From the NCBI RefSeq assembly GCF_054482525.1, contig NZ_CM137006.1: DNA of 64,000 nt; one strand, given 5' to 3'. Position numbers and translations under genes: made by a program. The notes under the pieces are model-generated. The model saw nothing but the letters and a program-made list of their open reading frames with translations, had not been told where the DNA came from and made no database searches. The number at the start of each line of letters is the position of its first letter. Positions within the stretch are counted from its first letter, which is position 1. Below are positions 35,691 to 64,000 of this stretch, one piece after another.

Positions 35691-36812
35691 ATGTCAAAAG
35701 TCGCTCTCATCACCGGTGTAACCGGACAAGACGGTTCTTACCTGGCAGAGTTTCTGCTGGAAAAAGGTTACGAGGTGCATGGTATTAAGCGTCGTGCATC
35801 GTCATTCAACACCGAGCGCGTGGATCACATTTATCAGGATCCGCACACCTGCAACCCGAAATTCCATCTGCATTATGGCGACCTGAGTGATACCTCCAAC
35901 CTGACGCGCATTTTGCGTGAAGTACAGCCGGATGAAGTGTACAACCTGGGTGCAATGAGCCACGTTGCAGTTTCTTTTGAGTCACCGGAATATACCGCAG
36001 ACGTTGATGCGATGGGTACGCTGCGCCTGCTGGAGGCGATCCGCTTCCTCGGTCTGGAAAAGAAAACCCGTTTCTATCAGGCTTCCACCTCTGAACTGTA
36101 CGGTCTGGTGCAGGAAATTCCGCAGAAAGAAACCACGCCGTTCTATCCACGCTCTCCGTATGCGGTCGCCAAACTGTATGCCTACTGGATCACCGTTAAC
36201 TACCGCGAATCCTACGGCATGTATGCCTGTAACGGTATTCTCTTCAACCATGAATCCCCGCGCCGCGGCGAAACCTTCGTTACCCGCAAAATCACCCGCG
36301 CAATCGCCAACATCGCTCAGGGGCTGGAGTCGTGCCTGTACCTCGGCAATATGGATTCCCTGCGCGACTGGGGCCATGCCAAAGACTACGTAAAAATGCA
36401 GTGGATGATGCTGCAACAGGAACAGCCGGAAGATTTCGTTATCGCGACCGGCGTTCAGTACTCCGTGCGTCAGTTCGTGGAAATGGCGGCAGCACAGCTG
36501 GGTATCAAACTGCGCTTTGAAGGCACGGGCGTTGAAGAGAAGGGCATTGTGGTTTCCGTCACCGGGCATGACGCGCCAGGCGTTAAACCGGGCGATGTGA
36601 TTATCGCCGTTGATCCGCGCTACTTCCGTCCGGCTGAAGTTGAAACGCTGCTCGGTGACCCGACCAAAGCGCACGAAAAACTGGGCTGGAAACCGGAAAT
36701 CACCCTCAGAGAGATGGTGTCTGAAATGGTGGCTAATGACCTCGAAGCGGCGAAAAAACACTCTCTGCTGAAATCTCACGGCTACGACGTGGCGATCGCG
36801 CTGGAGTCATAA
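35691..36812 (+). CDS. gmd: GDP-mannose 4,6-dehydratase
   Basis: 373-aa ORF with a Rossmann N-terminus ([17 protein letters not shown]) and the short-chain dehydrogenase catalytic region. Confidence 0.95.
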
Positions 36813-36814
36813 GC

Positions 36815-37780
36815 ATGAGTAAACAACGCATTTTTATTGCTGGCCATCGCGGGATGGTCGGTTCCGCCATCAGGCGGCAGCTCGAACAGCGCGGTGATGT
36901 AGAGCTGGTATTACGCACCCGCGATGAACTGAACCTGCTGGACAGCCGCGCCGTGCATGATTTCTTTGCCAGCGAACGTATTGACCAGGTCTATCTGGCG
37001 GCGGCGAAAGTGGGCGGCATTGTTGCCAACAACACCTATCCGGCGGATTTCATCTACCAGAACATGATGATTGAGAGCAACATCATTCACGCCGCGCATC
37101 AGAACGACGTGAACAAACTGCTGTTTCTCGGATCGTCCTGTATCTACCCGAAACTGGCAAAACAGCCGATGGCAGAAAGCGAGTTATTGCAGGGTACGCT
37201 GGAGCCGACCAACGAGCCTTACGCCATTGCCAAAATCGCCGGGATCAAACTGTGCGAATCTTACAACCGCCAGTACGGACGCGATTACCGCTCAGTCATG
37301 CCGACCAACCTGTATGGCCCGCATGACAACTTCCACCCGAGTAATTCGCATGTGATCCCTGCATTGCTGCGTCGCTTCCACGAGGCGACGGCACAGAATG
37401 CACCGGACGTGGTGGTATGGGGCAGCGGTACACCGATGCGTGAATTCCTGCACGTCGATGATATGGCGGCGGCGAGCATTCATGTCATGGAGCTGGCGCA
37501 TGAAGTCTGGCTGGAGAACACCCAGCCGATGCTGTCGCACATTAACGTCGGCACGGACGTTGACTGCACTATCCGCGAGCTGGCTCAAACCATCGCCAAA
37601 GTGGTGGGTTACAAAGGTCGGGTGGTTTTTGATGCCAGCAAACCGGATGGTACGCCGCGCAAACTGCTGGATGTGACGCGCCTGCATCAGCTTGGCTGGT
37701 ATCACGAAATCTCACTGGAAGCGGGGCTTGCCAGCACTTACCAGTGGTTCCTTCAGAATCAAGACCGCTTTCGGGGGTAA
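36815..37780 (+). CDS. fcl: GDP-L-fucose synthase (GDP-4-keto-6-deoxymannose 3,5-epimerase/4-reductase)
   Basis: 321-aa ORF starting [19 protein letters not shown]... Confidence 0.95.
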
Positions 37781-47901: not shown

Positions 47902-49296
47902 ATGCCATTTAAAAAACTCTCCCGACGCACCTTCCTGACGGCAAGCTCGGCGCTTGCCTTCCTCCATACCCCTTTCGCTCGCGCACTTCCCGACCAACAG
48001 AGCGTTAACATTAACGACTACAACCCTCACGACTGGATCGCCTCATTTAAACAAGCCTTCAGCGAAGGGCAAACAGTCGTCGTGCCTGCCGGATTGGTTT
48101 GCGACAATATCAACACCGGCATCTTCATTCCTCCTGGCAAAACGTTACACATCCTTGGAAGCCTGCGCGGCAACGGCAGAGGGCGATTTGTTTTACAGGA
48201 CGGCAGCCAGGTGACAGGGGAGGAGGGCGGCAGTATGCATAACATCACCCTGGATGTGCGTGGTTCTGACTGCACCATCAAAGGGTTGGCGATGAGCGGC
48301 TTTGGCCCGGTAACGCAGATTTATATCGGCGGCAAAAACAAACGGGTCATGCGCAACCTGACCATCGATAACTTGACCGTTAGCCACGCTAATTACGCCA
48401 TTTTACGCCAGGGATTTCATAACCAGATTATCGGTGCCAACATCACCAACTGTAAGTTCAGCGACTTACAGGGCGACGCCATTGAATGGAACGTGGCAAT
48501 TAACGACAGTGATATTTTGATTTCCGACCACATCATCGAGCGCATCAACTGTACTAACGGAAAAATCAACTGGGGCATTGGCATAGGCCTTGCGGGAAGT
48601 ACCTACAATAACAATTACCCGGAAGACCAGACAGTGAAAAATTTTGTTGTGGCGAATATCACGGGATCGGATTGTCGGCAGTTGATACATGTTGAAAATG
48701 GTAAACATTTTGTTATTCGTAATATCAAAGCCCGCAATATCACACCGGATTTCAGTAAGAAAGCAGGTATTGATAACGCCACAGTTGCTATTTATGGTTG
48801 TGACAACTTTGTGATTGATAATATTGAAATGATTAATAGTGCCGGGATGTTAATCGGCTATGGGGTAATTAAAGGCAAATATCTCTCGATACCGCAGAAT
48901 TTCCGGGTGAATAATATTCAACTGGATAATACTCATCTTGCTTATAAATTGCGCGGCATTCAAATCTCCGCCGGGAATGCTGTCTCCTTTGTGGCGCTGA
49001 CTAACATTGAGATGAAGCGTGCGTCGCTGGAGTTACACAACAAACCGCAACATCTTTTTATGCGTAATATCAATGTGATGCAGGAATCCTCAGTTGGACC
49101 CGCATTGAGCATGAACTTCGACATGCGCAAAGACGTACGAGGTGTCTTTATGGCGAAAAAAGAAACACTGCTATCTCTTGCAAATGTTCATGCGGTGAAT
49201 GAAAGAGGGCAAAGCTCTGTCGATATCGACAGGATTAATCACCATATTGTTAATGTGGAAAAGATTAACTTTAGATTGCCGGAACGGAGGGAGTAG
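47902..49296 (+). CDS. wcaM: Colanic acid biosynthesis protein WcaM
   Basis: 464-aa ORF with a Tat/Sec-like N-terminus ([21 protein letters not shown]); last gene of the colanic acid cluster. Confidence 0.88.
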
Positions 49297-49453
49297 ATTT
49301 GCGACCATTCATAAACTTACTGGATATAATGTTCTAAAAGATTATAATCCTCACACTAACTGTTAAAGCTGGGGCTGGGCAGCATTGACTACTCAGGGAA
49401 GGTACTCATCTTTATCTTGTGTTTCTTACGTAACAACCAGACTAAAGTGATTT

Positions 49454-50449
49454 ATGAACGATAACGTTTTGCTCATAGGAGCTTCCGGATTCGTAGGAAC
49501 CCGACTACTTGAAACGGCAATTGCTGACTTTAATATCAAGAACCTGGACAAACAGCAGAGCCACTTTTATCCAGAAATCACACAGATTGGCGATGTTCGT
49601 GATCAACAGACACTCGACCAGGCGTTAGCCGGTTTTGACACTGTTGTACTACTGGCAGCGGAACACCGCGATGATGTCAGTCCTACTTCTCTCTATTATG
49701 ATGTCAACGTTCAGGGTACCCGCAATGTACTGGCGGCCATGGAAAAAAATGGCGTTAAAAATATCATCTTTACCAGTTCCGTTGCTGTTTATGGTTTGAA
49801 CAAACACAACCCTGACGAAAACCATCCACACGACCCTTTCAACCACTACGGCAAAAGTAAGTGGCAGGCAGAGGAGGTGCTGCGTGAATGGTATAACAAA
49901 GCACCAACAGAACGTTCATTAACCATCATCCGTCCTACCGTTATCTTCGGTGAACGCAACCGCGGTAACGTCTATAACTTGCTGAAACAGATCGCTGGCG
50001 GCAAGTTTATGATGGTGGGCGCAGGGACTAACTATAAGTCCATGGCTTATGTTGGAAACATTGTTGAGTTTATTAAGTACAAACTGAAGAATGTTGCCGC
50101 AGGTTATGAGGTTTATAACTACGTTGATAAGCCAGACCTGAACATGAACCAGTTGGTTGCTGAAGTTGAACAAAGCCTGAACAAAAAGATCCCTTCTATG
50201 CACTTGCCTTACCCACTAGGAATGCTGGGTGGATATTGCTTTGATATCCTGAGCAAAATTACGGGCAAAAAATACGCTGTCAGCTCTGTGCGCGTGAAAA
50301 AATTCTGCGCAACTACACAGTTTGACGCAACGAAAGTGCATTCTTCAGGTTTTGTGGCACCGTATACGCTGTCGCAAGGTCTGGATCGAACTCTGCAGTA
50401 TGAATTCGTCCATGCCAAAAAAGACGACATAACGTTTGTTTCTGAGTAA
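49454..50449 (+). CDS. gne: NAD-dependent epimerase of the Gne/Gnu type (UDP-GalNAc or GlcNAc-PP-undecaprenol 4-epimerase family)
   Basis: 331-aa ORF with a Rossmann N-terminus (LLIGASGFVGTRLLE), located between wcaM and galF. Assignment rests on the fold and this characteristic position. Confidence 0.7.
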   Translation: MNDNVLLIGASGFVGTRLLETAIADFNIKNLDKQQSHFYPEITQIGDVRDQQTLDQALAGFDTVVLLAAEHRDDVSPTSLYYDVNVQGTRNVLAAMEKNGVKNIIFTSSVAVYGLNKHNPDENHPHDPFNHYGKSKWQAEEVLREWYNKAPTERSLTIIRPTVIFGERNRGNVYNLLKQIAGGKFMMVGAGTNYKSMAYVGNIVEFIKYKLKNVAAGYEVYNYVDKPDLNMNQLVAEVEQSLNKKIPSMHLPYPLGMLGGYCFDILSKITGKKYAVSSVRVKKFCATTQFDATKVHSSGFVAPYTLSQGLDRTLQYEFVHAKKDDITFVSE

Positions 50450-50691
50450 TGCAGACGAGTCAGAGAAAAAAGGACCAGGTTAGACTACGATTATTCGGAA
50501 AGAGGTACTGATTAAATTATCAGTATGTGGATTTCCGAGTAATCCGAGTAACCCAGATGCTGATGGTGTGTAGTGTTATCGTAAGGTTTAATCAAAGTTA
50601 TGCGGAGCTAAGCTTTGGTATATAGCCATAACGTTTGGCTAACCTATGGCAATAATTTACGCACTATCAGCCACTTAGAGGTAGGAAAAGA

Positions 50692-51585
50692 ATGACGAAT
50701 TTAAAAGCAGTTATACCGGTAGCAGGTCTTGGGATGCATATGTTGCCTGCCACTAAGGCGATACCCAAAGAGATGCTACCGATCGTCGACAAGCCAATGA
50801 TTCAGTACATTGTTGACGAGATTGTGGCTGCAGGGATCAAAGAAATCCTCCTGGTAACTCATGCGTCCAAGAACGCGGTCGAAAACCACTTCGACACCTC
50901 TTATGAATTAGAATCTCTCCTTGAACAGCGCGTGAAGCGTCAGCTGCTGGCGGAAGTGCAGTCGATCTGTCCACCGGGAGTGACCATTATGAACGTGCGT
51001 CAGGGCGAACCTTTAGGTTTAGGCCACTCCATTTTGTGTGCGCGACCCGCCATTGGCGACAACCCATTTGTCGTGGTACTGCCAGACGTAGTGATCGACG
51101 ACGCCAGCGCCGACCCGCTGCGCTACAACCTTGCTGCCATGATTGCGCGCTTCAATGAAACGGGCCGTAGCCAGGTGCTGGCAAAACGTATGCCGGGTGA
51201 CCTTTCTGAATACTCCGTTATTCAGACCAAAGAGCCGCTGGATCGTGAAGGCAAAGTCAGCCGCATTGTTGAATTTATCGAAAAACCGGATCAGCCGCAG
51301 ACGCTGGACTCAGACATCATGGCCGTTGGTCGCTATGTGCTTTCTGCGGATATTTGGCCGGAACTTGAACGCACTCAACCTGGTGCATGGGGGCGTATTC
51401 AGCTGACTGATGCCATTGCTGAACTGGCGAAAAAACAGTCCGTTGATGCAATGCTGATGACCGGTGACAGTTACGATTGTGGCAAGAAAATGGGCTATAT
51501 GCAGGCGTTTGTGAAGTATGGACTGCGCAACCTGAAAGAAGGGGCGAAGTTCCGTAAAGGTATTGAAAAGCTGTTAAGCGAATAA
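50692..51585 (+). CDS. galF: UTP-glucose-1-phosphate uridylyltransferase paralogue GalF
   Basis: 297-aa ORF starting [41 protein letters not shown]; marks the 5' flank of O-antigen clusters. Confidence 0.93.
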
Positions 51586-51838
51586 TGAAAATCTGACCGG
51601 ATGTAACGGTTGATAAGAAAATTATAACGGCGGTGAGGATTCGTGGGGCTAATTGTACTCATTGCCTCATTCTTTCTTTATACCGTTCTAAATATGAGTA
51701 ACAATAACTTTTCAATAGGCATTTATTGTGGGAGGCTGAGATTTTCTCCATCTCTGAAGCGATTTGGTAAAACGTTCAGAGTTAAGCTTTTCGAACTAAC
51801 CATAACGGTTAATGCTAGTTACAACTAGGACATGCATG

Positions 51839-51877
51839 CAGTACGCTGGTAGCTGTTGAGCCAGGGGCGGTAGCGTG
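51839..51877 (+). promoter_or_regulatory. JUMPstart element with ops site (GGCGGTAGCGTG) in the O-antigen cluster leader
   Basis: CAGTACGCTGGTAGCTGTTGAGCCAGGGGCGGTAGCGTG has the same architecture as the wza-leader element; ops core at 51866-51877, about 80 bp upstream of wzx. Confidence 0.85.
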
Positions 51878-51957
51878 AATTAAATGTTTATCCCATATTA
51901 CTTAACAAATTGTAAACTATCGTGCAAAATAAGACTTGTTAAGTACGTAGGCTCGTT

Positions 51958-53193
51958 ATGTTAAAAAACATCATCTATTTATTAAGCGTTCAAGGTGGCA
52001 ATTATATATTTCCATTGGTCACACTGCCTTATCTTGTCAGGATCCTTGAACCTACAGGATACGGGATATATGGGTATAGTTTTGCTGTGGTCCAATATTT
52101 TATATTATTTATTGATTACGGATTTAACTACTCAGCGCCCAAAATCATATCAATATCAAGGGAAAATACTGATTCCATAAGTAAAGTTTTTTGGAATGTA
52201 ACGTTTATCAAAATAATTGCAGCATCTCTTGGTTTGTTAATTATTTATTTAATTTCGGAATTGAATATCATTGATTACCAAATTAAATTTATCATTCTTG
52301 CATACATATCTGTCGTAGGAAATTTAATATATCCAGTATGGTTTTTTCAAGGGCTGGAAAAAATGTTAGGAATAGCGATAAGTATGTTTTCCGCACGCTT
52401 ACTTACACTATGTTTAACATTTTTATTGGTTAAAAGTGAAAAGGATCTTGGTATAGCGATAACAATACAATCATCAATAACAGTTATTGCAGGTATAATA
52501 TCTACATATTTTTTATTTTCTCTTAAAAAAATAATATGGGTACCACCATCCTTATCCAAAATGAAAGAGTTAATTTATGATGGATGGCATTACTTCATTT
52601 CCTCTGCAGCAATAAGCCTTTATACTACTAGTTCAACAATAATATTAGGTGCATTATCAGGAACAACTGCAGTGGGATATTTTATCGCTGCAGATAAAAT
52701 TAGGCTTGCACTACAAGGCGTTATTGGTCCTATAACCCAAGCTGTTTTTCCTAGAGTAACTTATATAATGAAGGATAATCATGACGATGGACTATTATTA
52801 GCCAGGAAAGTGTTTCGATGGCAATTTTCACTGATGTTCGTACTTTCCATATTTCTTTACTTTTTTGCAGACGATATAATTTTAATCATGTATGGAAAAA
52901 CGTATCATGAATCTTTAGAAATACTCAAGGTTTTAGCTTTTACTCCAGCAATAGTTACGGTAAGTAATTATATTGCAATTTTAGTAATGATCCCTATTGG
53001 TATGAAAAAAGAATTTACAAAAATTATTACTACCAGTGGATTAATAGGCCTACTGATAATTACTTATTTGACTAATGAATACTCAGGAGTTGGTACAGCA
53101 ATAGGAGTTATTTCAACTGAGTTTATAATAATGGCGAGATTTTACTTTTTGATTAAGAAAACAAATAAATTAAATAATTTAAATTTATTGTAG
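51958..53193 (+). CDS. wzx: O-antigen flippase Wzx
   Basis: 411-aa AT-rich polytopic membrane ORF with a PST-family N-terminus (...IFPLVTLPYLVRILEPTGYGIYG...). Confidence 0.8.
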   Translation: MLKNIIYLLSVQGGNYIFPLVTLPYLVRILEPTGYGIYGYSFAVVQYFILFIDYGFNYSAPKIISISRENTDSISKVFWNVTFIKIIAASLGLLIIYLISELNIIDYQIKFIILAYISVVGNLIYPVWFFQGLEKMLGIAISMFSARLLTLCLTFLLVKSEKDLGIAITIQSSITVIAGIISTYFLFSLKKIIWVPPSLSKMKELIYDGWHYFISSAAISLYTTSSTIILGALSGTTAVGYFIAADKIRLALQGVIGPITQAVFPRVTYIMKDNHDDGLLLARKVFRWQFSLMFVLSIFLYFFADDIILIMYGKTYHESLEILKVLAFTPAIVTVSNYIAILVMIPIGMKKEFTKIITTSGLIGLLIITYLTNEYSGVGTAIGVISTEFIIMARFYFLIKKTNKLNNLNLL

Positions 53194-53201
53194 GGCTAAC
53201 A

Positions 53202-53927
53202 ATGAATAAACCAACTTTAACAATAGTTACCGTTGTGTACAATGGCGAAATGTATATCGAAGATACTATAAAAAGTGTCTTATCACAAAACTGCAATGAT
53301 GACATTGAATATATTATAATTGATGGTGCATCAACGGATAATACTCTAAATATTGTTAATTCTTACAAAAATGAAATTTCATATATCATTTCTGAAAATG
53401 ATAATGGTATATATGATGCAATGAATAAAGGTGTGTTAAAAGCATCTGGAAATTATATAGGATTTATAAACGCTGATGATTTTTATAATAAAGATGTATT
53501 ATGTCAAGTAATAAAAGTAATGAAAGAAAATAAATATGATGTTATTTATGGAAATATGTCTTTGGTAGAGGCTGATAGCTTGGATGTTATTCAGGTCCGG
53601 AGGCCTAAAGACTGGAAACTACATATAGATATGAATTTAAGCCATCCGGCCACATTTATTAGAAAAGATATCCACAGAGAAAATTTATTTAATACTAGCT
53701 ATAAAATTGCTTCTGATTATGATCTTTTGCTAAAATTGAAGAAACAAGGTTATATCTTTCATTATATTGATAAAAATATCTCTTCGATGAGAAATGCCGG
53801 CCTTAGCGCTAAAAATGTAAAATTAGCATTGGAGGAAGCGAGACAAATCCGAAAGAAAAGAAACGGGAAATTATATGCGGCGTTAGCAGATATTTACCTA
53901 TTTATGAGAAAAGTTATAAAAAGATGA
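53202..53927 (+). CDS. O-antigen glycosyltransferase, GT2 family (WcaE-like)
   Basis: 241-aa ORF with IIIDGASTDNT and [11 protein letters not shown] motifs shared with WcaE. Confidence 0.75.
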   Translation: MNKPTLTIVTVVYNGEMYIEDTIKSVLSQNCNDDIEYIIIDGASTDNTLNIVNSYKNEISYIISENDNGIYDAMNKGVLKASGNYIGFINADDFYNKDVLCQVIKVMKENKYDVIYGNMSLVEADSLDVIQVRRPKDWKLHIDMNLSHPATFIRKDIHRENLFNTSYKIASDYDLLLKLKKQGYIFHYIDKNISSMRNAGLSAKNVKLALEEARQIRKKRNGKLYAALADIYLFMRKVIKR

Positions 53928-55159
53928 TTAATAGAAACATAAAAATTAGTGCTTCATTTATTTCAATAATTTATTTGCCTTTTGCTTTATTATTAGCAAT
54001 GATTGAAATGATTAATGGGGCCAGATGGAGTGTTTATGTATGTTCATTTATGCTAGGGGTACTAGCATTTTTGTTAATACCTTATGAAAATTGGGATTTG
54101 ACTAGGCATTATGAAACATATTTATATGTTAGTCAAACATCACTAAACAAAGTTTTTGAAAATAGTGACAATAGATATATTACAATAAATACTGTTATTT
54201 ATTTATTTAAATCTTTAGGAATAAAAAAAGAATTTTTACCTTTTTTTTCAACATTTTTATCATATATTTTTTATTTTAATATATATGTTAATCACATTAA
54301 AAAATACAATCCGGAATTATCTCATAGATGTATATATTTATATATTCTAATAAGCGTAATCCCATTTTTTGCTATAGCTAGTTCATTGCGGCAATATCTT
54401 GCATTTAGTATTATGCTTTATATGATCATACAGTATTTCACCAGTGAAAATAATAGGTATAAGTCACAAAAAATTATATTCTCTGCAATTATTTCATGTT
54501 GTATTCATCCCAGCGCAATACTATTGCTAGGTGTTTTTTTTGTTAGCAAATTAATAAGACTTAACAAAACAATATTGTATTTAATAATATTAGTTCTAAT
54601 CCTTAACCATGATGGATTAATATCTTCTTTGCTATTTCAATTGATTAGGCCATTATTGGAAAGCTTAGGTTTTTACTTTCCCGAATATATGGACTCTGTA
54701 ACCATAGGCATAAGCAATAGCTTGCTGAGCACTAATGAATATATCTTGAATAAGATCATATTACCGTCAGTGTTTTTTATTTTTACTTTTATCTATTTAA
54801 TTTTATTTAATAAAAAAATGACGAGGCAAGAGTCACAAATCAAAAATTTTTGCAGTTTACTTCTTTTGCTGATATGCCTTTTATCGTTATCGCCTGATTT
54901 ATTTTATCGATTTTCCATTTTCTGGGTGTTATTATATAGTTATATATTTTTCTCCTACGATATTAATAAAATTAGCAAACTATGTAAGCATCTGATCTTC
55001 TTAATACTCATTACCGCATGTTCAATCATAAATTTGGCACAGGCAAATATGGGTAAAGATATTATTTATGTGTCTTGGTGCGATATATTGTATAAGCCCT
55101 CATTATTCCTATTCAATAAAGAAGTTAAATCAGCAGAATATATAAGAGTGAGTCAATAA
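53924..55159 (+). CDS. wzy: O-antigen polymerase Wzy
   Basis: 411-aa very hydrophobic, AT-rich ORF with many predicted membrane segments and no recognisable catalytic motif, as is typical of Wzy. Confidence 0.7.
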   Translation: MINRNIKISASFISIIYLPFALLLAMIEMINGARWSVYVCSFMLGVLAFLLIPYENWDLTRHYETYLYVSQTSLNKVFENSDNRYITINTVIYLFKSLGIKKEFLPFFSTFLSYIFYFNIYVNHIKKYNPELSHRCIYLYILISVIPFFAIASSLRQYLAFSIMLYMIIQYFTSENNRYKSQKIIFSAIISCCIHPSAILLLGVFFVSKLIRLNKTILYLIILVLILNHDGLISSLLFQLIRPLLESLGFYFPEYMDSVTIGISNSLLSTNEYILNKIILPSVFFIFTFIYLILFNKKMTRQESQIKNFCSLLLLLICLLSLSPDLFYRFSIFWVLLYSYIFFSYDINKISKLCKHLIFLILITACSIINLAQANMGKDIIYVSWCDILYKPSLFLFNKEVKSAEYIRVSQ

Positions 55160-55160
55160 A

Positions 55161-56228
55161 ATGTCCATTGGAGTCTTTAAGCTGTATGAAAATAAAATAG
55201 GTGGCACTGAGAAAGCAGTTGAAAATCTAATTGATATATTAACTAAAAACAGCCTACAAGTGAGATGTTTTTCAGCAATAAACGCACAAGAGATACAAGT
55301 TAGAGAAGATAATCGGAAAACCTACTTATTCCAAGACAATACTGCATATGAAGAAAGCAAATTAAGGTTTTACATTAAATATTTGTTTTTTTTGAGTGCC
55401 AAAAGTAAAGACCTTGAATTAATAATTTCCACGGATATAGCTACATCATCATTATTGTTATTGATTGGTTTTTTTCGGTGTAATAAGAATAAAATTATTT
55501 GCTGGGAACATTATCCATTTGACAAGAATAGTATTTTTTGGAGAAAAGTATTTAAATTTCTTTTGTCTCTTAATAAAAAAGCTGTAGTAGTTTGTAATTC
55601 TCACAAGGAAAAAGATAAGTTTACTTTTTGTAAAAGGGTTGTAATTATACCAAATTCAATCAAAACGCAAAAATATAAGCGCATACATCAAGGAAAAGAA
55701 ACTCTTGATTTGATTTATATTGGTCGGATTGTTAAAGATAAAGGAGTTGAAAGGTTAATTAATGCAGTAATAAATCACCCGTCTACAAAAAAGTATGTTT
55801 TACACATTGTAGGAGGTGGTCAAGAGCTGGAGTATCTCAAATCTAAATATAAGAATAACAACCAAATACACTTTCATGGACCGAGTTTAAACACAGATGT
55901 TTTTTTGGCAAAAAGTGATGTTTTTGTATCCGGTTCATACTTTGAATGTTTTCCTGTTACAATACTTGAAGCTATGTCCTACGGATTACCTGTAATTTCA
56001 ATGGATATATCTGGAGGGACAAGTAGCGTGATTTCTTCATCGGGTGGCGGATTTGTGTGTCAATCTCAAATTGAATTTCAGGAAAAACTAACTTACTTTG
56101 AAGATAATGTTAAACGAACCGAACACGGAAATGCAGGATTCCTATTCGTGAATAGACATTATACAGAAGAAATAGTTAGTGCTCAGTGGATGAGTTTGAT
56201 CAATCGAGCCAATAGTCAAGAAAATTAA
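55161..56228 (+). CDS. O-antigen glycosyltransferase, GT4 family
   Basis: 355-aa ORF with a GT-B C-terminal motif region (...SGSYFECFPVTILEAMSYGLPVIS...). Confidence 0.75.
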   Translation: MSIGVFKLYENKIGGTEKAVENLIDILTKNSLQVRCFSAINAQEIQVREDNRKTYLFQDNTAYEESKLRFYIKYLFFLSAKSKDLELIISTDIATSSLLLLIGFFRCNKNKIICWEHYPFDKNSIFWRKVFKFLLSLNKKAVVVCNSHKEKDKFTFCKRVVIIPNSIKTQKYKRIHQGKETLDLIYIGRIVKDKGVERLINAVINHPSTKKYVLHIVGGGQELEYLKSKYKNNNQIHFHGPSLNTDVFLAKSDVFVSGSYFECFPVTILEAMSYGLPVISMDISGGTSSVISSSGGGFVCQSQIEFQEKLTYFEDNVKRTEHGNAGFLFVNRHYTEEIVSAQWMSLINRANSQEN

Positions 56229-56248: not shown

Positions 56249-57265
56249 ATGAGCATACTTGTGACTGGTGGGGCTGGCTATATTGGCTCACATGCTATAT
56301 TAACTTTATTGCAAAATGGATATGATGTTATATCGCTAGATAATTATTGCAATTCCTCTCCAAAATCTCTAGAACGAGTAGAGGAAATTTGCTTATCTAA
56401 GATAAAAAAATTACGTGGTGATATTAGAGATAGACATATATTAAAAAATATCTTTTCAAAATATAATGTTTCTACTGTAATGCATTTTGCGGGTTTAAAA
56501 TCTGTTAACGAGTCCATTAAAAAACCATTAGAATATTACGACACAAATCTTTTGGGGACTCTAATATTACTTGATGAAATGCAGAAAGCGAATATTTCTA
56601 ATCTAATTTTTAGTTCGTCTGCTACTGTCTATGGCAATCCTCATTATGTTCCAATATCTGAAAAACACCCTGTCGGTGAGGTGATCAATCCGTACGGTCG
56701 TTCAAAGTTTATGGTGGAACATATATTGCGTGATTTTTGTAACGCGAATAGCGACGCAAATATCACAATACTAAGATATTTTAATCCTGTAGGTGCTCAT
56801 AAGACTGGATTAATTGGAGAAGATCCTTTAGGAACTCCTAATAACCTGTTTCCCTATGTTGCGCAAGTCGCAATTGGAAAATTACCCTATCTAAATGTTT
56901 TTGGTAATAAATATATGACAAAAGATGGAACAGGTGTAAGAGATTATATCCATGTAGTCGATTTAGTTGAGGGGCATCTTGCCGCTTTAAAAAATCTCAA
57001 TAGAAACCGGGGGCTTAAAGTTTTTAATTTAGGCACTGGTCAAGGTTATAGTGTGTTAGATATCATCGACGCTTTTAAACTGGAAACAGGACGCGATATA
57101 CCTTTCCGTATCGTTTCTGAGCGAAATGGAGATGTGGCTGAATGTTGGTCCGATCCTTCCTTAGCAAACGAGCAGCTAAGTTGGGTTGCTAAAAGGACTC
57201 TTAATAATATGGTGGAAGATGCATGGAGATGGCAAACAATGAATCCAAATGGATATAAAGAGTAA
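56249..57265 (+). CDS. GalE-family UDP-hexose 4-epimerase (UDP-Glc/Gal or UDP-GlcNAc/GalNAc)
   Basis: 338-aa ORF starting MSILVTGGAGYIGSH..., with catalytic YGRSK. Substrate specificity cannot be told from sequence alone. Confidence 0.8.
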   Translation: MSILVTGGAGYIGSHAILTLLQNGYDVISLDNYCNSSPKSLERVEEICLSKIKKLRGDIRDRHILKNIFSKYNVSTVMHFAGLKSVNESIKKPLEYYDTNLLGTLILLDEMQKANISNLIFSSSATVYGNPHYVPISEKHPVGEVINPYGRSKFMVEHILRDFCNANSDANITILRYFNPVGAHKTGLIGEDPLGTPNNLFPYVAQVAIGKLPYLNVFGNKYMTKDGTGVRDYIHVVDLVEGHLAALKNLNRNRGLKVFNLGTGQGYSVLDIIDAFKLETGRDIPFRIVSERNGDVAECWSDPSLANEQLSWVAKRTLNNMVEDAWRWQTMNPNGYKE

Positions 57266-57333: not shown

Positions 57334-58341
57334 ATGAAAATATTATATGATGGGATTGTGAAAAGTTTACAATCATATGGTGGTATCACTGTATACTTTG
57401 AAGAAATCATTAAGAGATTAAAAAATGACGAATACAAATTCATTCAATTTAATGATAAAAATGAAAATCACAATGATGATCTCCATCGGCCATGCCGGTT
57501 TTTAGAACGATATAGATGTTTTGAAGCATTAAAAAGTGATTCAGATTACAGTATATTTCATTCTACATATTATCGGGTTCCGAAAGATGGGGAATATGCG
57601 GTTGTGACCACGGTCCACGATTTCACATATGAATTGTATATGAAAGGACTTCGGCGCAATGTTCATAGCTTACAAAAAAGATGGGCTGTGAAACATAGCG
57701 ATGCAATCATTTGTGTCTCTAATAATACAGCCAAGGATTTAATTAATTTCTTTAAGGTTGATGAAAAAAAGATACATGTTATTCATAATGGTGTATCGGA
57801 AGATTATAGACACTTAAATCTAGAAAAAGAAAATTTTGTGCTTTTTGTCGGTGCTCGTTCAGGATATAAAAATTTTGAGCTTGCAGTTAAAGCCGTTTCT
57901 AAACTTTTTGATACTAATCTTAAAATAGTCGGCGGAGGTGGTTTAAATAAAGCAGAAATGAAGTTACTATCTGAATATCTTCCAGAAAGATTCCAGTACT
58001 TAGGGAAGGTATCAAATGAAAAACTAAATATATTATATAATTCGGCTTATTGCTTAATCTATCCTTCAGAATATGAAGGGTTTGGAATTCCCTTGCTTGA
58101 GGCTATGCGAACTGGCTGTCCTGTGATAGCCGTAAATAGATCATCAATACCCGAGGTTGTGGGGGATAGTGCGATTTTAGTCGAAGAAGTATCAATTGAA
58201 AGTTTATTCTCAGCTTTATTAAGTGTAGAAGCTAACGCTAATGAATTAAAAAATAAAGGATTAGCGCAATCTAATAAATTTTCATGGGGGAAGTGTTTCT
58301 CCGAAACATATAATCTATATAAATCACTATCTAAGTTTTGA
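57334..58341 (+). CDS. O-antigen glycosyltransferase, GT4 family
   Basis: 335-aa ORF with the motif region ...[25 protein letters not shown]... Confidence 0.75.
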
Positions 58342-58351
58342 GAGGTTATTT

Positions 58352-59473
58352 ATGTGTAAGAAAGCTTTAATTACAGGAATTACCGGGCAAGATGGTTCCT
58401 ACTTGGCAGAATTTCTGCTTAAAAAAGGCTATGAGGTTCATGGAATAAAACGTCGATCTTCCTTGTTTAATACTGACCGTATTGATCATATATATCAAGA
58501 CCCACACCATCGTAATTTAAAATTACAACTTCATTATGGTGATTTAACAGATACTTCTAATTTGACTCGGATATTATCTGAAGTTCAACCTGATGAAGTT
58601 TATAATCTTGGCGCAATGAGTCACGTAGCTGTTTCCTTCGAATCCCCAGAATATACAGCTGATGTTGATGCTATAGGTACTTTACGATTATTGGAAGCTA
58701 TTCGTTTTTTGGGATTAGAAAAAAAAACCCGATTTTATCAGGCGTCAACCTCTGAATTGTATGGATTAGTTCAGGAAGTTCCACAAAAAGAGACAACGCC
58801 GTTCTATCCTCGTTCACCTTATGCCGTAGCTAAACTGTATGCATATTGGATCACTGTAAACTATCGTGAGTCTTATGGAATGTATGCATGTAACGGTATT
58901 TTGTTCAATCATGAATCCCCACGTCGTGGGGAAACGTTTGTAACACGTAAAATCACACGTGCTATAGCTAATATATCGCAGGGAATAGAAAAATGCTTAT
59001 ATCTTGGCAACATGGATTCTTTACGCGATTGGGGGCATGCGAAAGATTATGTTCGTATGCAATGGATGATGCTTCAACAAGACCAGCCAGAAGACTTTGT
59101 TATTGCCACCGGCAAACAAATATCTGTACGTGAATTTGTCCGTATGTCTGCTAAAGAAGTTGGACTTGAACTTGAGTTTTCCGGTACTGGTGTTGATGAG
59201 ATTGCATTTGTTGTAAATAAAACATCAGATTGCGCCGTTGGTGTTAATATTGGTGATGTTATTGTTCGCGTTGACCCTCGTTATTTTCGACCAGCAGAAG
59301 TTGAAACTCTTCTTGGTGATCCAACAAAAGCAAAAAATGTCTTGGGTTGGGAGCCAGAGATTACAGTTGAAGAAATGTGTGCAGAAATGGTGGCTAGTGA
59401 TTTAGAAAAAGCTAAACAGCATGCACTTCTTAAAAGCCATGGTTTTGACGTGGCAGTCTCTTTGGAGCGTTAA
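58352..59473 (+). CDS. gmd: GDP-mannose 4,6-dehydratase (O-antigen copy)
   Basis: 373-aa ORF with high protein similarity by eye to the colanic-acid Gmd (35691..36812), but with AT-rich codon usage. Confidence 0.93.
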
Positions 59474-59476
59474 AGT

Positions 59477-60442
59477 ATGACCAAGAAGCGAATTTTTGTG
59501 GCTGGACATCGTGGGATGGTTGGTTCTGCTATTTGTCGTCAATTATTAGCACGTAATGATGTTGAGTTAATTGTCAAAACTCACAAAGAACTCGATTTGA
59601 CAGTTCAAAAGGATGTTGAATGTTTTTTTGAGCAAGAGAGAATAGATCAGGTTTACCTTGCAGCAGCAAAAGTAGGAGGAATTCATGCTAATAACACTTT
59701 TCCAGCTGAATTTATTTATCAGAACCTTCTTATTGAAAGCAATATTATTCACTCATCTTACAAAGCGGGCATAAAGAAACTATTATTCTTAGGGTCAAGT
59801 TGTATCTATCCAAAGTTTGCAGAACAGCCAATGAAAGAATCTGCACTTTTGACGGGAACTCTTGAGCCTACTAATGAGCCTTATGCTATTTCCAAAATAG
59901 CAGGTATAAAGCTATGTGAATCTTATAATCGCCAATATGGATGTGATTATCGCAGTGTAATGCCTACTAACTTATATGGTATGAATGATAATTTTCATCC
60001 CAATAACTCACATGTAATTCCAGCGCTTATGCGGCGTTTTCATGAAGCAAAGGAACTTGGTTTAAATGAAGTGGTTGTCTGGGGAACGGGAACTCCAAAA
60101 CGCGAGTTTTTATATGTTGATGATATGGCCGCTGCATCAGTATATGTGATGGAGCTTGATGATGAAATTTATAAAAAAAATACTCAACCAATGTTATCTC
60201 ATATTAACGTAGGTACTGGTGTTGATTGTTCCATACGTGAAATGGCAGAAACAATGGCTTTAGTTGTTGGCTATGATGGAAAAATTGTTTTTGATATAAC
60301 AAAACCAGATGGTTCGCCTCGTAAACTTATGGATGTTACACGCCTTGAGAATTTGGGTTGGAAATATCGTTATAATTTAAAACAAGGACTAGAATTAACA
60401 TATAAATGGTTTATAAATAATCTTGACTCATTTAGGAGTTAA
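59477..60442 (+). CDS. fcl: GDP-L-fucose synthase (O-antigen copy)
   Basis: 321-aa ORF starting [19 protein letters not shown]..., paralogous to the colanic-acid Fcl. Confidence 0.93.
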
Positions 60443-60444
60443 TA

Positions 60445-60900
60445 TTGAACAAGAGATTAGAAACAGAGTTATTTAAATCAATAGTTGAACATACTCCACT
60501 AATCTCGATAGACCTTATTATAAGAAACGAAGATGGTAAGGCGCTGCTTGGTCAGCGCCTTAATCGTCCAGCACAAAATTATTGGTTTGTGCCGGGGGGA
60601 CGGATTCTTAAAGATGAGTCTTTCGAGAACGCATTCAAAAGAGTTACTTTAGAAGAATTGGGTGTTCAAATTAGCATTAATGAAGCAAAATTTCTTGGGA
60701 TTTATGAACATTTCTACAGCGACAATTTTTCTGGGACTTGTTTTTCAACTCATTATGTCGTACACGGATATGAGATTAGTTTGATGCCACATCAAATTAA
60801 CTATCCAACACTACAACATAGTACTTACAATTGGTTCGATATAGCCGAATTGTTAGCTAATTCCTCAGTTCATCAGTACACAAAAAATTATTTTAAGTGA
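60445..60900 (+). CDS. gmm: GDP-mannose mannosyl hydrolase (Nudix; O-antigen copy)
   Basis: 151-aa ORF with an apparent TTG start at 60445, seven nt after an AGGAG; similar to the colanic-acid Gmm core (...NYWFVPGGR...). Confidence 0.75.
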   Translation: MNKRLETELFKSIVEHTPLISIDLIIRNEDGKALLGQRLNRPAQNYWFVPGGRILKDESFENAFKRVTLEELGVQISINEAKFLGIYEHFYSDNFSGTCFSTHYVVHGYEISLMPHQINYPTLQHSTYNWFDIAELLANSSVHQYTKNYFK

Positions 60901-60911
60901 AGGTTATTTAT

Positions 60912-62297
60912 ATGCTACTTCCTGTTGTAATGGCCGGTGGTTCTGGAACTAGATTGTGGCCACTTTCTCGAACACTATATCCGAAGCAATTCCTATCGTT
61001 AACTAGTCGTTTGACTATGCTACAAGAGACCTTAAGAAGGCTTGAAGGGGTTGAACATCGTCCTGCTCTGGTTATTTGTAATGAAGTTCATCGTTTTATC
61101 GTTGCAGAACAGATGCGTAATGTAAATTTAGCGAATAGTGGCATTTTACTAGAGCCGATAGGTCGTAATACAGCCCCCGCAGTTGCGCTTGCTGCTCTTA
61201 AAGCGATTTCATCAGGTGAGGATCCAATACTGCTTGTACTAGCAGCCGATCATGAAATACAAGACCAAAAGCGCTTTATATCGTCAATATTGGCTGCAAA
61301 AGAATTTGCAGAGGAAGGTAAGCTGGTAACTTTTGGTATTGTGCCAACCAAACCCGAAACTGGATATGGCTACATAAAAACCGGAGAAAATTTAAATGAA
61401 TATGGTTTTAAAGTTTCTGCTTTTGTTGAAAAGCCTGAGCTAGATGTGGCCAAAAAATATCTTGAAGATGGAGATTATCTTTGGAATAGTGGAATATTCA
61501 TGTTTAGGGCTTCTGTGTTTATTGATGAGTTGAATAAATTTAGACCAGACATACTAAAAATATGCCAACAAGCATTGAAGTCCTCTACACAAGATCTTGA
61601 TTTTATCCGTATAGATAATGACTCATTTAGTTGTTGCCCTGAAGAATCCATTGATTACGCTGTTATGGAGAAAACAACAGAGGCTGTGGTAGTTCCATTA
61701 AATGCCCACTGGAGCGATGTTGGTTCTTGGTCTGCATTATGGGAAATTAGCAGAAAAGATAAAAGTGGAAATGCAATTAGAGGAGATGTATTAATTCATG
61801 ATTCTTCTGACAGTTATCTTTACTCACAACATAGATTAATTGGTGTAGTAGGAGTTAAAGATTTAGTAGTTGTTGAAACTAAAGATGCTATTCTCGTTGC
61901 GCATAAAGATAAAGTTCAACAGGTAAAAAATATTGTAGAAAAACTTAAAGTTAATAACCGTACGGAATATCTGCAGCATCGTGAAATATTTAGGCCATGG
62001 GGCAGTCATGACTCTATAGCGGAAGGATCTCGATTTGAGGTTAAACATGTCGTTATTCATCCTGGACATAAAACTGCTAAACAGATTCATTACCATCGTA
62101 CTGAGCATTGGATTGTTGTTTCTGGAACAGCAAAAGTCCATTATGAAGATGAAATATTTCTTGTTTCTGAAAATGAATCAACTTATATACCAATAGGTGT
62201 ACCTCATTTTATTGAGAATCCAGGAAAGATCCCTTTGGAGATTATTGAGGTACGTTCAGGTGTCTACTTGGATGAAGATGATGTTGTTAGAATCTAA
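60912..62297 (+). CDS. manC: Mannose-1-phosphate guanylyltransferase (O-antigen copy)
   Basis: I place the start at the ATG at 60912 ([20 protein letters not shown]...); the ORF track uses an in-frame GTG at 60897. Paralogue of cpsB. Confidence 0.88.
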   Translation: MLLPVVMAGGSGTRLWPLSRTLYPKQFLSLTSRLTMLQETLRRLEGVEHRPALVICNEVHRFIVAEQMRNVNLANSGILLEPIGRNTAPAVALAALKAISSGEDPILLVLAADHEIQDQKRFISSILAAKEFAEEGKLVTFGIVPTKPETGYGYIKTGENLNEYGFKVSAFVEKPELDVAKKYLEDGDYLWNSGIFMFRASVFIDELNKFRPDILKICQQALKSSTQDLDFIRIDNDSFSCCPEESIDYAVMEKTTEAVVVPLNAHWSDVGSWSALWEISRKDKSGNAIRGDVLIHDSSDSYLYSQHRLIGVVGVKDLVVVETKDAILVAHKDKVQQVKNIVEKLKVNNRTEYLQHREIFRPWGSHDSIAEGSRFEVKHVVIHPGHKTAKQIHYHRTEHWIVVSGTAKVHYEDEIFLVSENESTYIPIGVPHFIENPGKIPLEIIEVRSGVYLDEDDVVRI

Positions 62298-62380
62298 AAT
62301 GATGCTGGATACTAATGCAACATTATTATTCGTAATGCTGTACTGACGTTATTTAATTATGATTATTATTGGATGTTAAA

Positions 62381-63127
62381 ATGAAAGTCAGTATTATTAC
62401 AGTGACTTATAATAGTGAAAAGACTTTAAGGGATACTTTAGAGTCAATAGAGTTGCAAACCTATAAAGATATAGAGTATATAATTATTGATGGTGGTTCT
62501 ACAGATAATACGTTAAAACTAATTAACGAAGTATCAACAAGAGTAACCAAATGTCTATCAGAAAGCGATAACGGTATCTATGATGCTTTAAATAAAGGTA
62601 TAAATTTATCTACGGGAGATATTATTGGATTCGTTCATTCTGATGACCTTTTAGCAAGACCTGATATTATTGAAACTATTGTAAGCCGTTTCCATGAGAC
62701 AAAAGCGGATGTTGTATACGGTGATTTGGTTTTTTTCGAAAAAAACCAAACTGATATAATCAAACGATACTGGCGTAGTGGTCCTTTTAAACGTTCTAAG
62801 CTATCATTAGGCTGGGCACCACCGCATCCATCTTTCTATATGAGGAGGGAATTATATAAAGACGATGGATATTTTGATTTATCCTATAGGATTGCTGCAG
62901 ACTATGATCAGATGGTCAGGATTTTGAAACGTGATGATATTAAAGTTATTTATGTTCCTCAAGTATTTGTAAAGATGAGATTGGGTGGGGAAAGTACCAG
63001 AATTGATAACGCGATATCAAGTACAAAGGAAATTGTAGAAGTTATGAAAAACCATAATGTAAATTGGAAAATTGCTATCATTATCAGAAAAATCTCAAAA
63101 CTAATGCAATTGTTTGCGCATAAATAA
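62381..63127 (+). CDS. O-antigen glycosyltransferase, GT2 family (WcaE-like)
   Basis: I place the start at the ATG at 62381 (MKVSIITVTYNSEKTL...), with IIIDGGSTDNT and DNGIYDALNKG motifs; the ORF track starts at a TTG at 62369. Confidence 0.75.
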   Translation: MKVSIITVTYNSEKTLRDTLESIELQTYKDIEYIIIDGGSTDNTLKLINEVSTRVTKCLSESDNGIYDALNKGINLSTGDIIGFVHSDDLLARPDIIETIVSRFHETKADVVYGDLVFFEKNQTDIIKRYWRSGPFKRSKLSLGWAPPHPSFYMRRELYKDDGYFDLSYRIAADYDQMVRILKRDDIKVIYVPQVFVKMRLGGESTRIDNAISSTKEIVEVMKNHNVNWKIAIIIRKISKLMQLFAHK

Positions 63128-63151
63128 TTTTATTATTGGTAAGGTTTTTAT

Positions 63152-64000
63152 ATGAAAAAATTAACCTGCTTTAAAGCCTATGATATTCGCGGGAAATTAG
63201 GCGAAGAACTGAATGAAGATATTGCGTGGCGCATTGGTCGCGCCTATGGCGAATTTCTCAAACCGAAAACCATTGTGTTAGGCGGTGACGTCCGCCTCAC
63301 CAGCGAAACCTTAAAACTGGCGCTGGCGAGAGGTTTACAGGATGCGGGCGTCGATGTGCTGGATATCGGCATGTCCGGCACCGAAGAGATCTATTTCGCC
63401 ACGTTCCATCTCGGCGTGGATGGCGGCATTGAAGTTACCGCCAGCCATAATCCGATGGATTATAACGGCATGAAGCTGGTTCGCGAGGGGGCTCGCCCGA
63501 TCAGCGGAGATACCGGACTGCGCGACGTCCAGCGTCTGGCTGAAGCCAACGACTTTCCTCCCGTCGATGAAACCAAACGCGGTCGCTATCAGCAAATCAA
63601 CCTGCGTGACGCTTACGTTGATCACCTGTTCGGTTATATCAATGTCAAAAACCTCACGCCGCTCAAGCTGGTGATCAACTCCGGGAACGGCGCAGCGGGT
63701 CCGGTGGTGGACGCTATCGAAGCCCGCTTTAAAGCCCTCGGCGCACCTGTGGAATTGATCAAAGTGCACAACACGCCGGACGGCAATTTCCCCAACGGTA
63801 TTCCTAACCCGCTGCTGCCGGAATGTCGCGACGACACCCGCAATGCGGTCATTAAACACGGCGCGGATATGGGCATTGCCTTTGATGGCGATTTTGACCG
63901 CTGTTTCCTGTTTGACGAAAAAGGGCAGTTTATCGAGGGCTACTACATTGTCGGCCTGCTGGCAGAAGCGTTCCTCGAAAAAAATCCCGGCGCGAAGATC
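63152..64000 (+). CDS. manB: Phosphomannomutase (O-antigen copy), 5' 283 codons; the gene continues past the right edge of the window
   Basis: Starts [14 protein letters not shown]... Nucleotide sequence is nearly identical to cpsG from the ATG onward and is GC-rich, unlike the AT-rich genes just upstream. Confidence 0.9.

Follow-up and report, generated by a model that had tools for sequence, protein, structure and literature searches.

Gnu, a predicted 4-epimerase of the lipid-linked starter sugar, encoded between wcaM and galF next to an Escherichia coli O11 antigen cluster

The open reading frame (ORF) between wcaM and galF in the 64,000-nucleotide stretch of DNA analyzed here (the window) is very probably gnu, the gene for the C4 epimerase of the lipid-linked starter sugar, and we infer the activity of this allele from the near-identity of its product to the O157:H7 protein. 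The discovery value of the assignment is small, because the gene, its locus, its substrate, and its link to O antigens that start with GalNAc are all published and the function is already given in RefSeq. The gene is accompanied, inside the O11 antigen cluster downstream, by a second epimerase gene of the GalE family, and most of the argument below concerns how these two enzymes are likely to differ.

Results

The gnu ORF starts with ATG, is free of internal stops, and lies on the same strand as its neighbors (Table 1), 157 bp from wcaM and 242 bp from galF, in keeping with the gaps of ~160 and ~240 bp given in an earlier note on this DNA. That note also described the gene as moderately AT-rich, and its GC content is indeed 45.0% (GC3, 48.5%), as compared to 54–56% for wcaK and wcaL, 51% for galF, 53% for positions 1–45000 of the window, and 26–39% for the O11 genes. 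The gnu value thus falls between those of the colanic acid genes and those of the O-antigen genes.

Table 1. Features in and around the gnu locus (positions are those of the window)
Feature	Position	Strand	Basis
wcaM, last gene of the colanic acid cluster, upstream neighbor of gnu	47902..49296	+	NF007517, 1021 bits (cut-off 808); PCN033 annotation wcaM
gnu-containing segment, absent from E. coli K-12	49311..50666	+	Global alignment with the K-12 wcaM-galF region
Promoter-like site (TGGATA, 16-nt spacer, TATAAT)	49321..49348	+	10 of 12 consensus matches; ~105 nt before the gnu start codon
gnu, Und-PP-GlcNAc 4-epimerase (EC 5.1.3.26), 331 aa (predicted)	49454..50449	+	ORF; PCN033 RefSeq name; near-identity to O157:H7 protein
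Imperfect hairpin without U-tract, 40 nt past the gnu stop	50489..50544	+	Inverted repeat I2
galF, downstream neighbor of gnu	50692..51585	+	TIGR01105, 689 bits (cut-off 659); PCN033 annotation galF
JUMPstart element, start of the O-antigen operon	51839..51877	+	Rfam RF01707, 57 bits (gathering score 35), E = 1.1e-11
O11 cluster, 5' part: wzx, GT2 glycosyltransferase, wzy, GT1/GT4 glycosyltransferase	51958..56228	+	RefSeq "O11 family" flippase/polymerase; Pfam for the glycosyltransferases
GalE-family 4-epimerase, predicted Gne (UDP-GlcNAc/UDP-GalNAc, probably also UDP-Glc/Gal)	56249..57265	+	TIGR01179, NF007956, Cys299
O11 cluster, remainder: GT4, gmd, fcl, gmm, manC, GT2, manB (cut by the window end)	57334..64000	+	PCN033 annotation, ORFs, Pfam

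Positions 49200–50760 match the chromosome of PCN033 with 100% DNA identity. This E. coli strain is an extraintestinal pathogen from pigs and belongs to serogroup O11 (PMC4578781); RefSeq names its gnu product [quoted passage not shown] (WP_000999477.1). The protein shares 330 of 331 residues with WP_000999466.1, a sequence common to O157:H7, O55:H7, and O127:H6 and found in each of them at the wcaM-galF locus; the single change is Thr53 here for Ala53. According to the account of Rush et al. 2010 given in Cunneen 2013 (PMC3682973), the O157 enzyme is inactive on UDP-GlcNAc and acts on the WecA product Und-PP-GlcNAc, from which it makes Und-PP-GalNAc. In the naming of Cunneen 2013 (PMC3682973), such clade D enzymes are Gnu, the GalE-clade (clade A) enzymes that epimerize UDP-GlcNAc are Gne, and the WbpP-type UDP-GlcNAcA epimerases of clade B are GnaB. 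The Gne/Gnu-type epimerase proposed in the earlier note can therefore be narrowed to Gnu on the strength of the 330-residue match and the RefSeq name. Because this protein falls short of the cut-off of every NCBIfam model (HpnA scores highest, with 95.5 bits against 367.65), the annotation rests on near-identity and not on a family model.

The relationship to GalE and Gne is distant. Identity to GalE/Gne proteins is 20–25%, and the score on the GalE model TIGR01179 is 71.7 bits where 262.3 are required. In a PDB sequence search, E. coli GalE structures aligned with residues 45–167 only (~47 bits), and BLASTP against the in-cluster GalE-like protein gave 27% identity restricted to residues 4–222, with no end-to-end alignment. 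No WbpP or WbgU structure appeared among the PDB sequence matches at E ≤ 1e-5. A neighbor-joining tree was built from the window Gnu, its O157 counterpart, and 20 representatives of the family, together with the in-cluster GalE-like protein, O127 Gne, K-12 GalE, and both Gmd and both Fcl proteins of the window. The Gnu family formed a clade separate from GalE/Gne, Gmd, and Fcl, so the phylogenetic placement that the earlier note had proposed as a check puts the protein with neither the dehydratase Gmd nor the epimerase/reductase Fcl, and the grouping that would have refuted the reading in that note does not occur.

A search of 1.84 billion representative proteins recovered 362 relatives at E ≤ 1e-30 with 33–62% identity; closer relatives (81–92% identity) are spread across Enterobacterales. 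The names of the distant relatives are uninformative, nearly all being unnamed metagenomic proteins. Four relatives (P0169, P0176, P0218, and P0220) are fused to GT4 glycosyltransferases, and another (P0280) is a fusion with a Bac_transf phosphoglycosyl transferase encoded within a PglD/DegT/PglF-like gene cluster; these fused relatives are only 39–48% identical to Gnu. The C-terminal domain of Gnu itself (residues 241–331) is basic, with a pI of 9.3 against 5.9 for the remainder, and includes residues 253–270, the helix with the highest hydrophobicity in the protein. The end of GalE similarity ahead of the UDP-binding C-terminal domain, the basic C-terminus, and the fusions are hints that fit a lipid-linked better than a nucleotide-linked substrate, and the GT4 and phosphoglycosyl transferase fusions suggest a wider, unstudied family acting on lipid-linked sugars.

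The in-cluster epimerase, which the earlier note had placed in the GalE family and which is present as a 338-aa ORF, behaves quite differently in the same searches. It scores 427.5 bits on TIGR01179 (cut-off 262.3) and 449 on NF007956 (cut-off 394), and its identity is 51% to K-12 GalE and 57% to O127 Gne. Human GALE is its top PDB match (426 bits), with E. coli GalE behind; among the E. coli entries, the GalE Y299C mutant with bound UDP-GlcNAc (1lrk) scores 390.8 as compared to 385.8 for the wild type. Its Cys299 aligns with Tyr299 of E. coli GalE, Cys307 of human GALE, and a Ser of O127 Gne, at the gatekeeper site where, as summarized in Cunneen 2013 (PMC3682973), pocket size decides whether UDP-GlcNAc is accepted. 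The enzyme is thus predicted to be a member of the GalE/Gne family and a Gne capable of acting on UDP-GlcNAc/UDP-GalNAc. The donor specificity of the O11 GT4 glycosyltransferase was not transferred from O127, because BLASTP against the gne-adjacent O127 GT4 gave only a partial match of 30%, which is too weak.

These comparisons bear on the older view of Gnu, under which it was named Gne and regarded as an epimerase of soluble UDP-GlcNAc, the resulting UDP-GalNAc then being moved to Und-P by WecA. That view persists in some database records, which still name cluster members UDP-N-acetylglucosamine 4-epimerase, and the nearest folds include the UDP-GlcNAc C4-epimerases 6wj9/6wjb. We nevertheless consider it very unlikely, given the substrate preference attributed to the O157 enzyme in the account cited above, the requirement for both genes in O86, which carries both (PMC3682973), the low identity and TIGR01179 score, a C-terminal domain that cannot be aligned to the UDP-binding domain of GalE, and the presence in the O11 cluster of a true Gne candidate.

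The earlier note held that the division of labor between the two epimerases could not be told from sequence. To a useful degree it can, since the two proteins are only ~25% identical, belong to separate published clades with separately assigned substrates, and differ in that the in-cluster enzyme has the Cys299 gatekeeper. The count of two candidate 4-epimerases in that note also needs to be raised, as 5391 of the 5426 complete E. coli genomes have a housekeeping galE and three such enzymes are therefore expected.

The wcaM-galF gnu locus has been linked to O units that start with GalNAc (Cunneen 2013, PMC3682973; Liu 2020, PMC7685785), and the presence or absence of gnu was as predicted from O-unit structure in 104 of 115 serogroups (Cunneen 2013, PMC3682973). 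O11 is not among the 115 serogroups in Table S2 of that study; Liu 2020 (PMC7685785) names O11 in its reference list only. A report on O11 synthesis (PMC4906483) describes a pentasaccharide with beta-D-GalNAc at the reducing end and alpha-L-Fuc on its O-3, continuing with alpha-D-Man and then a disaccharide with an alpha-linked 2-acetamido sugar inside. The O125ac unit shares the Man-(1->3)-Fuc-(1->3)-GalNAc core with O11 and contains a second GalNAc, which was explained by gnu plus gne (PMC9680116). In RefSeq, the PCN033 O11 cluster comprises wzx, wzy, four glycosyltransferase genes, a galE-like gene, gmd, fcl, gmm, manC, and manB, with no initiating transferase among its annotated products. 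It is tempting to speculate that two inverting GT2 and two retaining GT4/GT1 enzymes would fit two alpha-L-Fuc residues, one alpha-Man, and one alpha-HexNAc; under that count, and equally speculatively, the supply of UDP-GalNAc would be the sole sensible job for the in-cluster epimerase.

Of 5426 complete E. coli genomes, 1314 (about a quarter) carry gnu and 65 carry the O11-type in-cluster epimerase allele. The span from gnu to the O11 wzx, which needs both genes, is covered to at least 80% in exactly 65 complete genomes; this span was used to assess linkage because that from gnu to gne passes 80% coverage even without gnu. Linkage of gnu to the O11 cluster is therefore complete (65/65), a count that is inflated by clonal relatedness. 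Together with the published link and the synthetic O11 unit, this supports the claim of the earlier note that a gene at this position goes with O antigens whose first sugar is GalNAc.

The same data can be set against the idea that gnu is an intact passenger, not needed for O11 and brought in by recombination of the galF-proximal region. Precedent exists, in that a gnu or gne gene was present in 10 cases though unneeded (Cunneen 2013, PMC3682973); moreover, gnu stands outside the JUMPstart-driven operon, and the relatedness of the genomes means that the 65 of 65 may reflect few events. Its retention in every O11-cluster genome and an intact ORF with all catalytic residues in place argue the other way, and we regard this explanation as even less likely than that of a soluble substrate.

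Catalysis by Gnu as an epimerase is consistent with its motifs and predicted structure. The protein carries GASGFVG at residues 9–15, Ser108, and a Tyr132-x3-Lys136 motif; an alignment of 99 family members shows no variation at Gly15, Ser108, or Tyr132 and almost none at Lys136 and the remaining glycines of the cofactor motif. No experimental Gnu structure was found among the PDB entries searched by sequence. The AF2 model (pLDDT 96.5) has an extended-SDR fold, and among solved folds those closest to it are small UDP-hexose 4-epimerases (8rdh, 6wj9/6wjb; TM 0.72–0.83, ~20% identity). Dehydratases and a decarboxylase score near the epimerases in the Foldseek list, so the reaction cannot be read from the fold by itself. 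That Gnu is instead some other SDR (a sugar dehydratase, a 4-keto reductase, or a 3-beta-hydroxysteroid-dehydrogenase-like oxidoreductase) would accord with those scores, with its best PDB sequence match, the sterol dehydrogenase NSDHL (6jkg, 67 bits), and with its Pfam families (NAD-dependent epimerase/dehydratase and 3-beta-HSD, the 3Beta_HSD score being 96 bits), but it is the least probable reading of all and borders on the negligible, since the protein is 99.7% identical to an enzyme for which the same account of the O157 work gives demonstrated 4-epimerase activity, does not group with Gmd or Fcl, and shows only ~20% identity in all such resemblances, which reflect the shared SDR fold.

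Homology to K-12 stops near 49310, ~14 nt past the wcaM stop, and resumes at ~50667–50687, 5–25 nt before the galF start; K-12 holds ~150 bp of unrelated spacer in place of the intervening DNA. From these limits, gnu, a putative promoter, and the hairpin make up one presence/absence segment of ~1.36 kb. Matches to the gnu flanks were found in 4590 genomes, only about 1315 of which cover the gene. The promoter-like site is the best in 49100–52100, where 8 such sites occur against 5.4 expected from shuffles. The RNA fold of 50445–50600 has an energy of −40.1 kcal/mol (z = −3.0 versus shuffles), and the hairpin within it possibly marks the 3' end of the transcript or stabilizes it.

The earlier note had placed the gene outside both operons. 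For the O-antigen operon this holds, as JUMPstart sits after galF and the RfaH-dependent operon thus begins downstream of gnu. On the colanic acid side, a terminator scan found no terminator-like site after wcaM, or after gnu, where it did not pick out the hairpin, so that read-through from the colanic acid operon may occur. Independent transcription of gnu from a promoter of its own is plausible, judging from the promoter-like site.

Discussion

Our data are best accommodated by a pathway in which WecA, encoded elsewhere, would make Und-PP-GlcNAc at the cytoplasmic face of the inner membrane and Gnu, presumably a peripheral membrane-associated, NAD-dependent extended-SDR enzyme, would turn it into Und-PP-GalNAc. 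If the mechanism follows that of GalE, the residues Tyr132, Lys136, and Ser108, together with bound NAD+, would oxidize C4 to give a 4-keto intermediate, and return of the hydride to its opposite face would invert C4. The O11 glycosyltransferases would then extend Und-PP-GalNAc, adding first alpha-L-Fuc on O-3. The in-cluster Gne would provide the soluble UDP-GalNAc needed to add the second HexNAc, the one that does not start the unit, if that residue is, as we suppose, also GalNAc, and the housekeeping GalE, encoded outside the window, would handle UDP-Glc/UDP-Gal.

The closest known counterpart is the O157:H7 Gnu (Z3206 type, WP_000999466.1), which has the same locus, length, 157- and 242-bp spacers, and RefSeq product name; the window allele differs in having Thr53 for Ala53 and in being paired with an O11 instead of an O157 cluster. 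As an arrangement of two genes, the locus resembles those of O86, O127, and O125, with gnu upstream of galF and a GalE-family gne inside the cluster (seen in the O127 locus). In O86 both genes are required, Gnu for the first GalNAc and Gne to supply UDP-GalNAc for the second (PMC3682973). The O11 gne is 57% identical to that of O127 but has Cys instead of Ser as gatekeeper and lies in the middle of the cluster, whereas the O127 gne is the first gene after galF.

With the clade A enzymes (E. coli GalE and human GALE), Gnu shares the SDR superfamily and the Ser/Tyr/Lys triad; C4 epimerization via a 4-keto intermediate is established for GalE and would be expected to apply to Gnu. In contrast to these enzymes, Gnu has a C-terminal domain without detectable similarity to the UDP-binding domain, and the substrate of its type is a polyprenyl-diphosphate sugar and not a nucleotide sugar, going by what is related of the O157 enzyme in PMC3682973.

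The GnaB/WbpP-type enzymes of clade B are SDR 4-epimerases as well and were once also called Gne. Their genes always lie beside a WbpO/gnaA dehydrogenase gene (PMC3682973). The neighbors of the window gene are wcaM and galF, with no WbpO/GnaA dehydrogenase gene adjacent to it or in the O11 cluster, and GnaB was rejected as its identity.

A bolder proposal is that the ~1.36-kb segment is a "first-sugar switch" cassette, with its own promoter, a conserved 3' hairpin, sharp junctions with K-12 sequence, and expression independent of RfaH/JUMPstart, through which the level of Und-PP-GalNAc would be set apart from the remainder of O-unit synthesis, and that Gnu belongs to a wider family of enzymes of lipid-linked sugars. 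Taken as a whole we think this unlikely, though clearly less so than any of the alternative functions weighed above.

Gnu also serves as a glycoengineering tool, by which recombinant glycans are given GalNAc as their reducing-end sugar. For strains such as this one, the practical value of the assignment is that gnu predicts O11 units starting with GalNAc. More broadly, the window may serve as a worked example for reading such loci, in which the lipid-linked starter sugar would be the task of Gnu, the UDP-GalNAc for later residues that of a GalE-family enzyme whose gatekeeper residue is small, and UDP-Gal that of the housekeeping GalE.

Results

Comparison with E. coli K-12, which lacks gnu, showed that the presence/absence polymorphism of this Und-PP-GlcNAc 4-epimerase gene (49311–50666) has sharp junctions: on the wcaM side, homology to K-12 is lost ∼14 nt past the wcaM stop codon, on the galF side it returns 5–25 nt ahead of the galF start codon, and the K-12 counterpart of the segment is an unrelated spacer of ∼150 bp. 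Well upstream of the start of the O-antigen cluster, GC content already falls to ∼41% over 48500–49500, a stretch comprising the spacer and the 3′ half of wcaM; across whole genes it is 46.6% for wcaM versus 55.9% for wcaL. On the other side of gnu, 40 nt separate its stop codon from a hairpin, and the region folded has a predicted energy of −40 kcal/mol (z = −3.0). Because the hairpin lacks a U-tract, it was not called by the terminator scan.

Features in and around the O11 cluster
Feature	Coordinates	Strand	Basis or location
Imperfect hairpin, stable	50489–50544	+	RNA fold of 50445–50600
JUMPstart RNA element	51839–51877	+	RF01707, 57 bits, E = 1e-11
Glycosyltransferase genes	53202–53927, 55161–56228, 57334–58341, 62369–63127		O11 cluster
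gmd/fcl pair	35691–37780		Colanic acid cluster
gmd/fcl pair, low-GC (GC3 0.23–0.25)	58352–60442		O11 cluster

The galF-wzx interval contains a JUMPstart element (by its RF01707 match), which marks where the RfaH-dependent O11 operon starts. Of the four glycosyltransferases in the cluster, two are inverting enzymes of the GT2 type and two are retaining enzymes of the GT4/GT1 type, a set that would fit a putative unit containing one alpha-Man residue, one alpha-HexNAc residue, and two alpha-L-Fuc residues. Mechanically called starts lie upstream of the RefSeq-annotated ones in manC (60897–62297; GTG at 60897 versus 60912) and in the last GT2 gene (TTG at 62369 versus 62381), and these differences are minor start-codon ambiguities. 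The window also holds two full sets of GDP-L-fucose genes, with gmm, manC, and manB each likewise duplicated.

Discussion

Several metagenomic relatives of Gnu found in a large protein search are fusion proteins with 39–48% identity to it. One (P0280, L006:5001–6944) is joined to a Bac_transf phosphoglycosyl transferase and is encoded in a PglD/DegT/PglF-like sugar cluster, and four others (P0169, P0176, P0218, and P0220) are joined to GT4 glycosyltransferases. These fusions hint that enzymes working on lipid-linked sugars form a broader family.
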